DNA of 23,092 nt from Candidatus Thorarchaeota archaeon. GTDB taxonomy: Archaea; Asgardarchaeota; Thorarchaeia; Thorarchaeales; Thorarchaeaceae. The notes under the pieces were generated by a model. The model saw nothing but the letters and a program-made list of their open reading frames with translations. It was not told the origin of the DNA and made no database searches. Position 1 is the first letter of the stretch. Every line of letters starts with the position of its first letter. Shown piece after piece: positions 18,072-22,644 of this stretch. A program made the position numbers and the translations under genes. Where the stretch lies: NCBI GenBank assembly GCA_048882485.1, contig JBHLRP010000039.1, positions 1 through 23,092 on the forward strand, read 5' to 3'.

Positions 18072-18863
18072 ATGGTTGAATCAATCGAGGTTTTGGAAGC
18101 CACTCCTGAGGACGCTGAAATCCTTGCAGAGATTTCGAAGAGAGCCTTTGAGAGTGACATTGATGTAGGTGCCTCAGTGAAAGGAGGTCCACTGGGGTAT
18201 GACTCAGTGGAAGTCCATATGAAAGACGCGAAGAGAGAGTGGTTAGATTACATGAAAGTCCTCTATAAGGGACAGATTGTAGGAGGGATGCGCGTGTACA
18301 GGATGCATCACGGCCATTATGAGATAATGGGTGTCTTTGTAGACCCTGATTATCATAGAAAAGGAATTGGCCAGAAATCTTTCGAGATTGTAATGCAAAT
18401 GTATCCAGATGCAAAGAAATGGACTCTTGATACACCAGACTGGAATTTTCGAACCAAGAACTTCTACGAGAAGCTCGGCTTCGTTCAGTACGGAGTCATG
18501 CGATGGGAGCCAGATTTTGAGCTTCGAGCGTATGAGCTGCTACTGGACCCAGATTTCAAGAGAGATGTCACAGGCATAGGTGAACTTGTTGATGGCATGA
18601 AACAAGTCACAGTTGAAGGGTCAGTGGATGACATTCCACCTGCACGCGAAGTAGTTTCAAGAAAGGATGGAAAGACTCACAGGGTTGCTGATGCAAGACT
18701 ATCCGATGAAACGGGGTCCGTTAAGTTGGCTCTTTGGAATGATGCCATTCGGCAGGTAAATCCAGGGGAGAGAATACTTGTTGAAAAAGGATATGTGAAT
18801 TCGTTCAGAGAGGAGATTCAACTCAATTTGAGTAGATTTGGAAGACTTATCATCCTGCAATGA
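18072..18863 (+). CDS. GNAT acetyltransferase fused to a C-terminal SSB/RPA-type OB fold
   Basis: Residues ~1-158 carry GNAT motif A VDPDYHRKGIGQ and NFYEKLGF. Residues ~165-263 (IGELVDGMKQVTVEG...LSDETGSVKLALWND...GYVNSFREEIQLNL) resemble crenarchaeal single-OB SSB. Confidence 0.88.
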   Translation: MVESIEVLEATPEDAEILAEISKRAFESDIDVGASVKGGPLGYDSVEVHMKDAKREWLDYMKVLYKGQIVGGMRVYRMHHGHYEIMGVFVDPDYHRKGIGQKSFEIVMQMYPDAKKWTLDTPDWNFRTKNFYEKLGFVQYGVMRWEPDFELRAYELLLDPDFKRDVTGIGELVDGMKQVTVEGSVDDIPPAREVVSRKDGKTHRVADARLSDETGSVKLALWNDAIRQVNPGERILVEKGYVNSFREEIQLNLSRFGRLIILQ

Positions 18864-18938: not shown

Positions 18939-19856
18939 GTGAGATCCTTGGACAATATTGACAAGAGAATCATATTCGCGCTAGACCAAGACTGCCGGCT
19001 ATCATACCAGGCAATAGCAGACAAGATTGGCCTTACAGCAAATGCCGCAAAGAAGAGAATCGCAAAGCTTGTCGAATCAGGCATAATCGACCGATTTCTT
19101 ATCACACCATCCTTCGCTATGATGAATGCAGACCTTGTTCTAGCTATTGTCCAAAGTGATGGCACAGAATACCAGGAGGACCTCATTGAAACCATGGGAA
19201 GCAATCCATCCGTCGCACAAGTGAGTTCAGTTGCTTGTGGCATGGGGGGTCTCTATGCAGTATTTGCTGCAGTGAGTGGTTCAAGGGCCCTCTTGGAGTT
19301 TGGTTCTCAGATAAGGAAGCTTGAGTCTGTTACTGATGTCGACATTCATGTCTTGCTCTACCCAAAGGGTAAGAAGGTTAAACTTTCTAAGACGCAAAAG
19401 ACTGTGCTTCGGTATCTTGTGGAAAATACTCGTGCTACTATCGCGGATGTTGCAAAAGCAACAGGGATGACAGCACGAAGAGCACGAAGAGCAATTGACG
19501 ACCTCAACGAGGGAGAAGGAGTCGCATTCAGTGTTCTTTGGAATCTCGGTATCGGCGGATTGACTGAGGTTCTTATGAGGATTGCCTGGGATGAGAAGAG
19601 TACCACTGCCAATGAGATTGTGGAATGGCTTCAAGAGAAATTTCCTGATGAGTTTTGGTCTCCATTCATTTCTGCTGTAGCTCCAATCATCTTTGCCAGA
19701 TTTGTGGTCAGTGAGATTGAAACCGCGGAAGCAATATCAAGAACTATTAGAAGAGCGCCATTTGTTGACTTGGTAACTTCCTTGGTTCTATACTCCAACA
19801 AAATCTTCGAGTGGCCCGGGACTATTGAATTGAAGAAACTGTTAGACAGCCAATAG
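18939..19856 (+). CDS. Lrp/AsnC-family regulator with two tandem wHTH + RAM-like units
   Basis: LDNIDKRIIFALDQDCRLSYQAIADKIGLTANAAKKRI; second HTH LSKTQKTVLRYLVENTRATIADVAK. Clear paralog of 14112..15116. GTG start. Confidence 0.88.
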   Translation: MRSLDNIDKRIIFALDQDCRLSYQAIADKIGLTANAAKKRIAKLVESGIIDRFLITPSFAMMNADLVLAIVQSDGTEYQEDLIETMGSNPSVAQVSSVACGMGGLYAVFAAVSGSRALLEFGSQIRKLESVTDVDIHVLLYPKGKKVKLSKTQKTVLRYLVENTRATIADVAKATGMTARRARRAIDDLNEGEGVAFSVLWNLGIGGLTEVLMRIAWDEKSTTANEIVEWLQEKFPDEFWSPFISAVAPIIFARFVVSEIETAEAISRTIRRAPFVDLVTSLVLYSNKIFEWPGTIELKKLLDSQ

Positions 19857-19965: not shown

Positions 19966-22644
19966 TTGACAGGTCAACCTTGCGACGAGCTGGCGCGAGC
20001 AGAAGAACTACTGAAGAATGGGGAATATAATCAGGCCCTTCAGATAGTACAATCCCTTTCATCCAATGAACTGATGCCTGCTGAAAGCCTCCATTGCTCG
20101 CTTCTTGAGTGCAAACTACGCATCAGGTTGGGTGATCTTGAGAAGGCCGGGCATGTTGCTGATGAGTCTTTAGAAGTTGCCAGGCAGCAGGAGAATACGC
20201 TCATGATGCTTGACTTTCTTCTCATTAAGGTTGAGCTTGCATGGCGTTCAGGAGAATTTGATGAAGGCCTTTTGATGGTCCCAGAGATTGAGAACCAACT
20301 GAAACAAAGCGATGTAAAATCAGATATTGATGAATCGGAACTAAAGAGAAGAAAGGCGCAGCTTTCACGTCATTGTGGAATCCTCAATTGGTATAAGGGA
20401 GACCTAGACAGAGCAGGCGAGTATCACGAAAAGAGCCTCGAGGTATATCGTGAATTGGGCGATAAGCCAGGCGAAGCTAGCTCTTTGAATAATATTGGAT
20501 TGGTGCAGTGGTCCAAGGGGAATCTCAATGCTGCAGCTGAGTATTATGAAAAGAGCCTATCAATCAGACAAGAATTAGGGGTCCCCTATGAAATCGCGGT
20601 TATTCTGAACAATCTCGGAAATGTCTATGTAATGAAAGGTGACTTAGAAAGTGCATTAGAATACCATAATCAAGCCCTACACATTAGGGAGAAGCTGGAT
20701 AATAAGCCTGATTTGGCAACCTCATTGACAAACGTGGGATCCGTTTACCAGACAAGGGGGAGTTTGAACCAGGCGTTGGAATGTTATCATAGGGCATTGA
20801 AAATCTATGAGGATATTGATGTTAAACAGGGCATGGCATTAATTCTAAGCAACTTGGGCAGTGCATATGAAATCCGAGGAGATCTTCTTCAGTCACTTGA
20901 TTATCAGCAAAGAAGCCTAGAGATTAGAAAAGAACTTGGAAACAGGCAAGAGATAGCTCTTTCGCTTCTCAACATCGGTGGAATTCATCGCCAGAGGGGT
21001 GATTCGGAATTAGCTCTGGAAACTTTACAACAGAGCCTGGAATTGTTCAAAGAATCAGGTAATGAGTCCTATACAGCTGCTGCAAATTATTTCATCATAG
21101 CAGTAGCAACTGAGAATGATGACCTTGAAGCTGCTGACGATGCTCTTCGCAATCTTCAGGAACTCAGTGAGGAGACCACCAACCCAGTCATCAGCCAGCG
21201 GTATAGAGTGGCCAAAGCAATCCGACTGAAGGCAAGCAAAGGCGCTCGAGACAAACTTGAAGCTCAAGGAATACTTGCTGAAATTGTTCAAGAAGAAGTG
21301 GTTCAGCACACGCTCACTGTGACTGCAATGGTCCATCTTTGTGATTTGCTTCTGTTTGAGCTCAAAATGACAGGTGACGAAGAGCTCTTCGAGAGTGCGA
21401 AAGATATAGCACAGCAGATCATGAACATCGCCAAATCTCAGATGTCCTACTCTCTCCTTGCTGAGGCTTATATTCTTCAATCAAAATTCGCATTAGTGGA
21501 GCAAGACATCGAAAAAGCTAGGATTTTGCTTTCACAAGCACATATCATGACTCAAGAGAAAGACCTCTACATCCTTGCTAGAAAAGTAGCTCACGAAAGG
21601 GATCTGCTGCAATTGGAGGTAGACAAGTGGCAGAAGATAATCGAAAAGAATCCATCTCGAAAGGAAATGATTGACTTTGCCCAACTTGATGACTATCTCG
21701 AGCGCATGATCAAGAAGACGGTGGCAGTCCTTACAGCCGATGAGAAGAAGGAGTTCGGTGATGAAGCAGTCAAGGAGAAGTACCGCCTAGCATATTCCGA
21801 CCTACTCGAGGGAGCAGAAGCTGTCGAAAAGAGTCAGTTTCGAGTGGGCATTGCTCAGATTGGACTCTCCCAGAATGGAGACCTTCTCGGTGAGTATTAT
21901 GAGGAATTTGGCAAAGGTCTCTTGGTAATTCAAAAAGATAGGATTGACGAGGTGAAGGCCAGAGTTGAGAAAGCGATCAATGAAGCCAATGATGCGGGGG
22001 TCAATGTCCTACTCTTCCCGGAGATGACAATAGACCTGAATTATCCAGAATTGATTGATGAGGTAACTAAACTGGCGAAGAAGCATCGGATGTACATCAT
22101 CCCGGGGTCGTTTCATGAGGAGGAATCCAAGCAGAACCTATGCAGAGTCATCGGACCCACCGGAGTCATTTGGGAGCAAGCCAAACATATACCCGCTATC
22201 ATCCATCTCAAAGGAAAGAGATTCACTGAGGGTATCGATGTTGGGCAGCACCCAAGAGAGACCATAGTCTGCAACACAGAATATGGAAGAATGGCTATTG
22301 TCATCTGTCGTGATTTCCTAGACATGGATTTGCGTGTTGAACTGAAGAACTTCGACCCGCCAATCGATTTGGTGCTTAATCCAGCATTTACGCCGGTCAC
22401 GGCTGATTTCGATGCAGCTCATTTTGATGCCAGAAGGTCAATCTATGCATACTGCTTCTTCGCCAATGTAGCTGAGTTCGGCGACTCACTCATATACACT
22501 CCTGAGAAAGAAAAGATTGAGAGGAAGCTGACAGCTGGAGAGGAGGGCCTTATCTACAAAGATGTGGATTTGTTCCAGCTTAGGTCAGAAAGGAAGAAAT
22601 GGGAAAAAGAGCGCAGACGGTTTATCCAAAGCACCAAGTCATAG
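19966..22644 (+). CDS. TPR-repeat protein fused to a C-terminal carbon-nitrogen hydrolase (nitrilase superfamily) domain
   Basis: About six 40-aa TPR units (SLNNIGxVxxxKGxLxxAxEYxxKSLxIxxELG) and a helical linker, then FRVGIAQ, LLFPE686, QAK740H, VIC781RDF, LVLNPA, FFANVA and GDSLIY. TTG start. Confidence 0.9.
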   Translation: MTGQPCDELARAEELLKNGEYNQALQIVQSLSSNELMPAESLHCSLLECKLRIRLGDLEKAGHVADESLEVARQQENTLMMLDFLLIKVELAWRSGEFDEGLLMVPEIENQLKQSDVKSDIDESELKRRKAQLSRHCGILNWYKGDLDRAGEYHEKSLEVYRELGDKPGEASSLNNIGLVQWSKGNLNAAAEYYEKSLSIRQELGVPYEIAVILNNLGNVYVMKGDLESALEYHNQALHIREKLDNKPDLATSLTNVGSVYQTRGSLNQALECYHRALKIYEDIDVKQGMALILSNLGSAYEIRGDLLQSLDYQQRSLEIRKELGNRQEIALSLLNIGGIHRQRGDSELALETLQQSLELFKESGNESYTAAANYFIIAVATENDDLEAADDALRNLQELSEETTNPVISQRYRVAKAIRLKASKGARDKLEAQGILAEIVQEEVVQHTLTVTAMVHLCDLLLFELKMTGDEELFESAKDIAQQIMNIAKSQMSYSLLAEAYILQSKFALVEQDIEKARILLSQAHIMTQEKDLYILARKVAHERDLLQLEVDKWQKIIEKNPSRKEMIDFAQLDDYLERMIKKTVAVLTADEKKEFGDEAVKEKYRLAYSDLLEGAEAVEKSQFRVGIAQIGLSQNGDLLGEYYEEFGKGLLVIQKDRIDEVKARVEKAINEANDAGVNVLLFPEMTIDLNYPELIDEVTKLAKKHRMYIIPGSFHEEESKQNLCRVIGPTGVIWEQAKHIPAIIHLKGKRFTEGIDVGQHPRETIVCNTEYGRMAIVICRDFLDMDLRVELKNFDPPIDLVLNPAFTPVTADFDAAHFDARRSIYAYCFFANVAEFGDSLIYTPEKEKIERKLTAGEEGLIYKDVDLFQLRSERKKWEKERRRFIQSTKS

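Follow-up and report, generated by a model that had tools for sequence, protein, structure and literature searches.

The window analyzed here is a stretch of 23,092 nucleotides from a Candidatus Thorarchaeota contig, and the feature of interest is a single open frame on its forward strand at positions 18072-18863. According to the ORF list this frame begins with ATG, ends with TGA and encodes 263 amino acids; the opposite strand contains many stops across the same positions. The deduced protein has a size of 29 kDa, is soluble-looking, and obtained Pfam matches to GNAT and OB families only. An earlier note had described the gene as an acetyltransferase fused within one frame to a single-stranded nucleic acid-binding OB fold. 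This is confirmed, as both domains are found above their Pfam cut-offs in the uninterrupted 263-residue frame, and the product is a GNAT joined to an OB fold of the SsoSSB/hSSB1 type. The motifs quoted in that note are present, namely HRKGIG (residues 95-100), FYEKLGF (131-137) and DETGSVKLALW (212-222). The positions of all features are given in Table 1.

Table 1. Features of the GNAT-OB gene, with nucleotide positions counted from the first letter of the window.
Feature	Residues	Position	Strand	Basis
Whole GNAT-OB gene	263 codons + stop	18072..18863	+	ORF list, translation, homologues, AlphaFold2 model
GNAT acetyltransferase domain	1-157	18072..18542	+	Pfam PF00583, PF13508, PF13673; Foldseek; subfamily profile
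GGPxGYD, subfamily-specific acceptor-side loop motif between helices 1 and 2	38-44	18183..18203	+	Alignment
HRKGIG, acetyl-CoA pyrophosphate-binding motif A	95-100	18354..18371	+	Alignment
Strand 5, loop and helix 4: WTLDTPDWNFRT and FYEKLGF with presumed general-acid Tyr132	117-128 and 131-137	18420..18482	+	Alignment
Interdomain linker	158-168	18543..18575	+	Ends of stand-alone GNATs; start of SsoSSB alignment; model
Tail-less SSB-type OB fold	169-263	18576..18860	+	PF21473, PRK06461, sequence and fold matches
DETG turn and strand 3 ending in W222 (= SsoSSB W56)	212-222	18705..18737	+	SsoSSB alignment; conservation
Y241 and F245 in strand 4 (= SsoSSB W75/F79, hSSB1 Y74/F78)	241 and 245	18792..18806	+	Alignment

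Domain structure and residue conservation

In the N-terminal half the family Acetyltransf_1 (PF00583) covers residues 57-137 with an E-value of 1.1e-13 and 51.9 bits compared to a cut-off of 20.7. We calculated residue conservation from 133 aligned full-length fused homologues. The glycine at position 98 of motif A occurs in 129 of them (97%), and position 100 is occupied by Gly or Ala in 132 (99%). Tyr132 is kept in 130 proteins (98%), W117 in all 133, W124 in 132, and N125 at the passage from strand 5 to the loop in 130. If the subfamily profile is aligned to the PDB, HRKGIG coincides with the Q/R-x-x-G-x-G/A motif of 8osp and PaiA, and the segment around Tyr132 with the FYeKfGF segment of the same two proteins. 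The cofactor and catalytic residues are intact, and the GNAT domain looks catalytically competent.

As is usual for GNATs, the GGPxGYD loop presumably lines the acceptor site. Each of its positions is kept in 93-99% of the 133 fused proteins, and the motif is common to 76 stand-alone GNAT relatives. Near-invariant residues on the acceptor side of the fused proteins are acidic or aromatic (D29, D44, D91, F26, Y43, W117, W124).

A Foldseek search of the PDB assigns the GNAT half to small generic GNATs (8osp, PaiA (1tiq), 3fnc, RimI and SpeG in the lead), and nearly all of the top 30 matches are GNATs with a probability of 1.00. The subfamily profile yields whole-domain alignments with the canavanine-selective GNAT 8osp (2e-12; PMC10416765) and the polyamine acetyltransferase PaiA (3e-12). 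No equivalog cut-off is reached by the GNAT half in the NCBIfam scan; this half belongs to a distinct, uncharacterised GNAT subfamily.

The AlphaFold2 model of the whole protein, for which an alignment of 26 sequences served as input, has a mean pLDDT of 92.7 and a pTM of 0.85. It follows the strand-helix order of a GNAT up to residue 157, continues with a loop without regular secondary structure (residues 158-178), and ends in a five-stranded OB fold with one short helix. The border between both domains can also be read from the relatives: the stand-alone GNATs stop approximately 5-10 residues past the position of Y154, and the alignment to SsoSSB begins at residue 169.

The C-terminal half is matched by the Pfam family Ssb-like_OB (PF21473) at residues 193-259 with an E-value of 3.8e-7 and 30.6 bits compared to a cut-off of 24. 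Archaeal SSB models of NCBIfam including PRK06461 match residues 165-259 with an E-value of 8e-16, below their equivalog cut-offs. In a phmmer search of the PDB, residues 169-254 align with residues 5-88 of SsoSSB (1o7i, 2mna, 7wcg; E-value 2e-7), and human SSB1 is also matched by the OB half (1.7e-6). The earlier note had placed W222, Y241 and F245 at the +19/+23 spacing of the base-stacking residues of SsoSSB, and the phmmer alignment indeed puts them on W56, W75 and F79; V194 aligns with I30. The corresponding stacking residues of hSSB1 are W55, Y74 and F78, with a tyrosine in the middle as Y241 here (PMC5027503). The superposition on SsoSSB which had been suggested for a predicted model gave the same picture: Foldseek fits the OB half to 1o7i_B with an rmsd of 1.4 Å over 98 columns and a TM-score (target) of 0.78, and to the hSSB1-ssDNA complex 5d8f_B with an rmsd of 1.9 Å over 93 columns.

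The face formed by these residues is well kept in the 133 fused proteins. D212 is found in all 133, L221 in 132 and W222 in 130 (98%); position 241 is Tyr or Phe in 120 (90%), and position 245 Phe or Tyr in 129 (97%). V194 occurs in 130 proteins, and position 192, an arginine here, is basic (Arg or Lys) in 129. The assignment of the OB half to the SsoSSB/hSSB1-type fold with an intact aromatic binding face holds, and nucleic-acid binding is predicted for it.

The flexible acidic or RGG-containing C-terminal tail is absent from the fusion, since the protein ends four residues past the last OB strand, in agreement with the earlier observation that the acidic SSB tail is missing. The genome's own SSB paralogues have RGG tails. 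The net charge of the fused OB fold is approximately zero, a value not below that of the OB folds in the genuine SSBs of this genome, and 13 of its positions are basic in at least 60% of the sequences. With the four RGG-tailed single-OB SSBs encoded in the genome the OB half shares 38-40% identity, and with tail-less OB proteins of approximately 100 residues from metagenomes 45-50%. Among the three closest of these stand-alone OB proteins with readable flanks, two have a gene for a small RNA-binding TRAM protein just downstream; among the small ORFs flanking the fused genes no TRAM-like proteins were seen by eye. SsoSSB was reported to bind RNA with high affinity (PMC5346138), and the SSB of S. 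islandicus to be dispensable for replication and to act as an RNA chaperone and cold-shock protein, like archaeal TRAM proteins (PMC10684826). Because the class binds RNA and the closest stand-alone OB proteins have TRAM neighbors, single-stranded RNA is as plausible a ligand as single-stranded DNA.

Distribution, neighborhood and origin of the fusion

A word-indexed search returned 164 relatives. Nearly all of the 120 that were listed are 260-270 residues long and possess both Pfam domains; their identity reaches down to 45%, and their names refer to Thor-, Hod-, Sif-, Odin- and Lokiarchaeota and to Theionarchaea. An exhaustive HMMER scan of 1.84 billion cluster representatives yielded, at 50% identity, roughly a dozen clusters with the full-length fusion. 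Out of 301 Asgard species genomes 74 were matched at an E-value of 1e-20, approximately 60 of these genomes with a two-domain match free of stops, and a scan of one genome per prokaryotic species adds many Bathyarchaeia, Heimdall-, Hermod- and Promethearchaeota and Theionarchaea. Overall, the range comprises five Asgard classes (Thor-, Hermod-, Hod-, Heimdall- and Lokiarchaeia), many Bathyarchaeia, and Theionarchaea. The architecture claimed in the earlier note is found as one gene in more than 100 proteins from several archaeal lineages. Two further contigs with the fusion are labeled as bacterial bins (Krumholzibacteriaceae, Patescibacteria); they are probably mis-binned, because their neighbor genes are shared with Bathyarchaeal loci. 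No relative was found in viral contigs.

Within this range the presence is patchy (3 out of 13 genomes of the own genus, 16 out of 90 high-quality genomes, several families), and some Asgard genomes contain two paralogues. The GNAT-OB gene is accessory, not core. Compared to two close orthologues the dN/dS ratio is 0.07-0.11 for the GNAT half and 0.09-0.10 for the OB half, i.e. both halves are under purifying selection. The fusion is old and retained. An artefact of assembly, read-through or gene calling was considered and can be dismissed with near certainty: a single ORF of 260-270 residues recurs without stop or frameshift in independent assemblies of at least seven named archaeal lineages, and purifying selection acts on both of its halves. 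A few database entries are shorter (157-225 residues), and the two examined (P0154 and P0234) are fragments of fusions. One Bathyarchaeal locus (L061) contains the GNAT half only, which reads as a secondary loss.

We inspected the gene neighborhoods of 12 Asgard loci and 65 loci from species genomes, and annotated recurrent neighbors with Pfam. In the own genus the order is a membrane protein, the GNAT-OB gene, a double AsnC-type HTH protein (18939-19856) and a TPR-nitrilase (19966-22644). Synteny beyond the genus is absent in the 12 Asgard and 65 further loci. The neighbors found elsewhere are genes of housekeeping or envelope functions, among them an FtsX permease, a PKD protein, a dehalogenase-like protein, an ADH, a thioredoxin-like protein, an O-antigen polymerase, an adenylosuccinate synthetase and another GNAT, and the most widely shared neighbor cluster occurs in at most 11 of the 65 loci. 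As the neighbors outside the genus are unrelated, no operon can be inferred. An ORF of 85 residues is conserved downstream in some Bathyarchaeia and has no Rfam match.

The 76 stand-alone relatives are approximately 155 residues long and 35-50% identical to the GNAT half. They possess both signature motifs, GGPxGYD in the loop that joins the first two helices and WTLxTPxWNxRT following strand 5, and occur, among others, in Chloroflexota (Anaerolineae), Firmicutes (Lachnospiraceae, Christensenella), Bacteroidota (Bacteroides) and Gaiellaceae. In the tree of the GNAT domain the fused proteins fill one half, together with the stand-alone proteins of Chloroflexota. That the fused proteins form one clade together with the secondarily truncated ones is not rejected by the AU test (p 0.56), in agreement with a single origin of the fusion. 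Sequences from Asgard archaea, Bathyarchaeia and Theionarchaea are intermixed within this clade, and this suggests transfer among sediment archaea. The catalytic module stems from the stand-alone subfamily.

At three related loci of Anaerolineae (Chloroflexota) the stand-alone gene is divergent to a HTH_11-WYL-WCX regulator of the PafC/DriD type. In the GNAT tree these three relatives and the fused proteins fall in the same poorly separated region. Regulators of this type are activated by single-stranded DNA after DNA damage (PMC9186387, PMC11804915). The adjacency, seen in three related genomes only, parallels the archaeal enzyme with its single-strand-binding domain; WYL regulators, however, have many different targets of control. 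Other stand-alone genes, from bacteria of gut and sediment, adjoin XRE regulators and a GyrI-like small-molecule-binding protein. Members of this GNAT subfamily also occur with a SWIM zinc finger, pentapeptide repeats, DUF3795 or a transglutaminase-like domain as fusion partner, so that the catalytic cassette was repeatedly combined with different C- or N-terminal modules. Several of these partners are typical of protein or DNA-protein recognition. The sister fusions fit a catalytic cassette which is aimed at macromolecules by swappable adaptors.

Potential function of the joined domains

We tentatively propose, as the best of several explanations, that single-stranded nucleic acid directs or gates this acetyltransferase, and we favor a protein bound to the strand as acceptor. 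The tail-less OB fold would bind approximately five nucleotides of single-stranded DNA or RNA by stacking W222, Y241 and F245 on the bases, and the linker of approximately ten residues would hold the GNAT beside the strand. Because this linker is so short, exposed single strands may keep the enzyme in place or activate it. The GNAT would transfer the acetyl group from acetyl-CoA to an amino group of a molecule on the same strand, either by mere proximity or because strand binding relieves an inhibition. The likeliest acceptors would be lysines or N-termini of strand-bound proteins, e.g. the archaeon's own RGG-tailed SSBs, RPA or Alba-type proteins. The binding of nucleic acid, its role as a tether or as an allosteric gate, and the acceptor are what we infer here.

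Protein acceptors are favored because tethering helps only localized substrates and because the sister fusions use macromolecule-recognition modules. The proposal is further supported by the adjacency to WYL regulators in Anaerolineae, and protein acetyltransferases in which a regulatory domain is combined with a GNAT are an established design (PMC6456759). The acceptor motifs are common to the stand-alone bacterial GNATs, which speaks against chromatin targets peculiar to Asgard archaea, e.g. histones, and for a substrate that is not specific to archaeal chromatin or replication proteins. It counts against the proposed function that a conserved neighborhood pointing to a pathway is absent and that the gene is accessory.

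As the nearest solved GNATs are acetyltransferases of small amines (canavanine, polyamines), a non-protein acceptor is a live rival. In this main rival the OB fold would target or gate the enzyme as well, but the acceptor would be a small cationic amine concentrated on the nucleic acid, e.g. spermidine, spermine or an analogue of a basic amino acid, and acetylation would lower the local polyamine charge on single strands or detoxify the amine. We regard this as unlikely, even though 8osp and PaiA are the nearest structures by the subfamily profile and 8osp, PaiA and SpeG are among the top Foldseek matches. GNAT sequence similarity is a poor predictor of the substrate, and the NCBIfam models of PaiA and SpeG stay far under their cut-offs (24 compared to 250 bits). 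The near-invariant acidic and aromatic residues on the acceptor side would suit a cationic amine, and so would the XRE regulators and the GyrI-like small-molecule-binding protein next to the stand-alone genes; on the other hand, being tethered to a polymer is of little advantage if the substrate is diffusible, and the partners in the sister fusions (SWIM, pentapeptide repeats, transglutaminase-like) speak for macromolecules as targets.

Quite improbable, in our estimation, is an acceptor that is the nucleic acid itself or a group attached to it, i.e. an exocyclic base amine of single-stranded RNA or DNA in an ac4C-like reaction or an aminoacyl-tRNA as for TacT/AtaT, with the OB fold binding the substrate. 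The short linker would bring a bound strand near the active site, and the SSB class comprises tight RNA binders and RNA chaperones (PMC5346138, PMC10684826), with the TRAM gene found downstream of two of the stand-alone OB proteins, out of the three closest whose flanks are readable, as a further hint; the stand-alone GNATs, however, have the same acceptor motifs without any nucleic-acid-binding domain. A match of the OB half to PF01336 (tRNA_anti-codon, E-value 1e-5) is below the cut-off (25.9 compared to 27), the likeness to TmcA/NAT10 is confined to the generic GNAT fold without helicase or tRNA-binding domain, and KacT is a marginal match (6.6e-4) with no conserved antitoxin-like neighbor. 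We likewise see little probability that the OB fold no longer serves nucleic acid at all and instead allows an ordinary GNAT to interact with proteins, to oligomerize or to be autoinhibited. Reuse of OB folds for binding proteins is frequent, and human SSB1 binds INTS3 via the face opposite to its DNA site. A pTM of 0.85 suggests that both domains pack together, and the gene is accessory without replication or repair neighbors. Had binding been lost, the conservation of the stacking aromatics, V194 and R192 at 90-98% would be unexpected, and the net charge of approximately zero, which might otherwise be taken as an argument for this explanation, has to be seen next to the genuine SSB OB folds of the genome, which are no more basic.

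A more far-reaching version of the nucleic acid-directed acetyltransferase, to which we give a low probability, is a one-piece sensor-effector. Single-stranded DNA arising from damage, stalled forks or R-loops would bind to the OB fold and activate the GNAT, which would mark strand-bound proteins; or nucleic acid or aminoacyl-tRNA would be acetylated directly. If this version is true, the protein would be an archaeal, Asgard-rich counterpart both of the acetylation signaling on eukaryotic RPA/hSSB1 and of the bacterial WYL regulators which sense single-stranded DNA.

In the literature searched we found no paper describing the GNAT-OB architecture. The eukaryotic DNA-damage response is known to be controlled at the acetylation of SSB/RPA-type proteins, for which separate enzymes are used; strand binder and acetyltransferase are combined here in a single protein of 29 kDa. 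Provided that the OB fold acts as a tether or gate, no GNAT of such simple design would have been directed to nucleic acid before. An enzyme for polyamines or other small amines would still represent a new way of localizing such chemistry to nucleic acid. Binding and activity are directly testable, because the protein is small, soluble-looking and confidently modeled.

Comparison with known systems

Several identities were considered for the GNAT half and rejected. RimI is the commonest weak match in NCBIfam (33 of 40 subfamily members), with 30-32 bits for TIGR01575 compared to a cut-off of 86.4. SpmdActasePaiA obtains 22-24 bits compared to a cut-off of 250, and the SpeG model is also far under its cut-off. 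A toxin of the TacT/AtaT/KacT type was rejected because no conserved small partner gene occurs in the 65 loci, and the profile match to KacT is marginal (6.6e-4). For TmcA/NAT10 the architecture of DUF1726, helicase, GNAT and tRNA-binding domain is missing, Pfam reporting GNAT and OB families only.

Among solved structures the GNAT half is matched best by PaiA/SSAT/SpeG and 8osp, along the entire domain with motif A and the segment of the catalytic tyrosine. They are only 15-19% identical, however, none of them has an OB fold, and GGPxGYD and WTLxTPxWNxRT set the GNAT-OB subfamily apart from them. The stand-alone bacterial GNATs of approximately 155 residues do share the motifs of the acceptor loop and strand 5; they lack the OB fold and adjoin XRE or WYL regulators.

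The OB half resembles SsoSSB (1o7i, 2mna, 7wcg) and hSSB1/SOSS-B1 (5d8f, 4owx) in its single OB fold, the DETG turn, and the triad of tryptophan, aromatic residue and phenylalanine with identical spacing. Proteins of this class have both single-stranded DNA and single-stranded RNA as ligands (PMC5346138, PMC10684826). In contrast to these tailed proteins the fusion is tail-less, its OB fold is located C-terminal to an enzyme, and the gene is accessory. As it lacks the tail and is accessory, the fusion is not a canonical SSB.

With regard to the domain principle, the bacterial class I-beta and type III KATs are comparable, in which an N-terminal ACT, cAMP/cNMP or NADP effector domain is followed by the GNAT (PMC6456759). 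Common to both is a small ligand-binding domain on a single GNAT, by which acetylation can respond to a signal in the cell. The order is reversed here with the GNAT in front, and none of the three effector domains described is an OB fold; for both reasons GNAT-OB lies outside the described regulated KATs. Furthermore, these KATs are lysine acetyltransferases, whereas GNAT-OB is a putative N-acetyltransferase. The GNAT and the OB fold are both known folds, and what is new is the targeting or effector domain on a GNAT. Should the OB fold tether or gate, it would be a fourth kind of effector domain besides the three described for regulated acetyltransferases.

Genes downstream of the fused gene

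The gene for a double AsnC/Lrp-type winged-helix protein begins 76 bp past the stop codon of the GNAT-OB fusion, and this synteny is limited to the genus. The gene for a TPR-nitrilase protein is likewise kept downstream within the genus; the combination of a TPR array and a nitrilase-type domain in one protein is an unusual pairing. In several Bathyarchaeia a conserved ORF of 85 residues, starting with MERWF, lies immediately 3' of the fused gene. Its composition is odd, and its comparison to Rfam returned no match. The ORF may represent a conserved element that is non-coding or mis-framed.

Two of the contigs carrying the fusion are filed in bacterial bins, namely L040 (Krumholzibacteriaceae) and L045 (Patescibacteria). 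As some of their neighbour genes recur at Bathyarchaeal loci, both are probably mis-binned. Identical GNAT-OB sequences also occur under the labels Thorarchaeota and Heimdallarchaeota (loci L070/L071), and the taxon labels of these MAGs are therefore not wholly reliable.

Locations of genes related to or neighbouring the GNAT-OB fusion
Feature	Location	Strand	Host or source	Details
Double AsnC/Lrp-type winged-helix HTH protein	18939-19856	+	window	305 aa; HTH at residues 4-50 and ~149-196
TPR-nitrilase protein	19966-22644	+	window	892 aa; N-terminal TPR array, C-terminal carbon-nitrogen hydrolase (nitrilase-type) domain
85-aa ORF (MERWF...)	L047:4360-4617; L048:6864-7121; L049:1996-2253; L040:5251-5508; L041:6448-6753			
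PF21473 OB loci (L001-L004, L006)	C80:10733-10990; C26:28577-28798; C98:577-840; C8:63512-63778; C1:90399-90656		genome of the window (G000)	
Tail-less OB gene and small TRAM-domain gene	L099:3001-3581; L100:105-998		metagenome contigs	
GNAT-half-only gene	L061:6001-6630		Bathyarchaeota bin67 chromosome	209-aa ORF; annotated as partial
HTH_11-WYL-WCX regulator region	L087:3758-4735; L088:4405-5631; L096:3460-5142	-	Chloroflexota	

Relatives of the OB half

In addition to the fused protein, five further PF21473 OB proteins are encoded in the genome of the window. At least three of them are single-OB SSBs (167-208 aa) with long C-terminal tails rich in RGG/RGGY, and a fourth, closely similar copy is truncated by the end of its contig. 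Such a number of paralogous SSBs is unusually high for a single archaeon.

Among stand-alone proteins, the OB half has its nearest relatives in tail-less OB proteins 98-158 aa long. At two loci (L099, L100) a small TRAM-domain gene of the RNA-chaperone type follows directly downstream on the same strand, and the two genes may form an RNA-binding pair. In a third case (L101/L102) a small zinc-ribbon-like protein is encoded at this position instead.

The GNAT half in other contexts

The L061 gene falls within the Thorarchaeal fused clade, contains the GNAT half only and is followed by an unrelated ORF of 92 residues, apparently a secondary loss of the OB fold.

Among the bacterial stand-alone GNATs, three Chloroflexota genomes carry a divergent gene for a PafC/DriD-like HTH_11-WYL-WCX regulator, separated from the GNAT gene at L096 by a GyrI-like small-molecule-binding gene; an ADP-forming acetyl-CoA synthetase-like gene lies nearby. 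At seven further loci (L090-L094, L097, L098; Lachnospiraceae, Christensenella and Bacteroides) the gene upstream on the same strand codes for an XRE-family (HTH_3) protein, which is conserved, 222-291 aa long and without a Pfam match over its C-terminal two-thirds.

The same GNAT subfamily, recognized by its GGPPGYD and WxLxTP motifs, is joined to other modules in four metagenome cluster representatives (P0134, P0174, P0236, P0202), the partner being a SWIM zinc finger, pentapeptide repeats, a DUF3795 or a transglutaminase-like domain.
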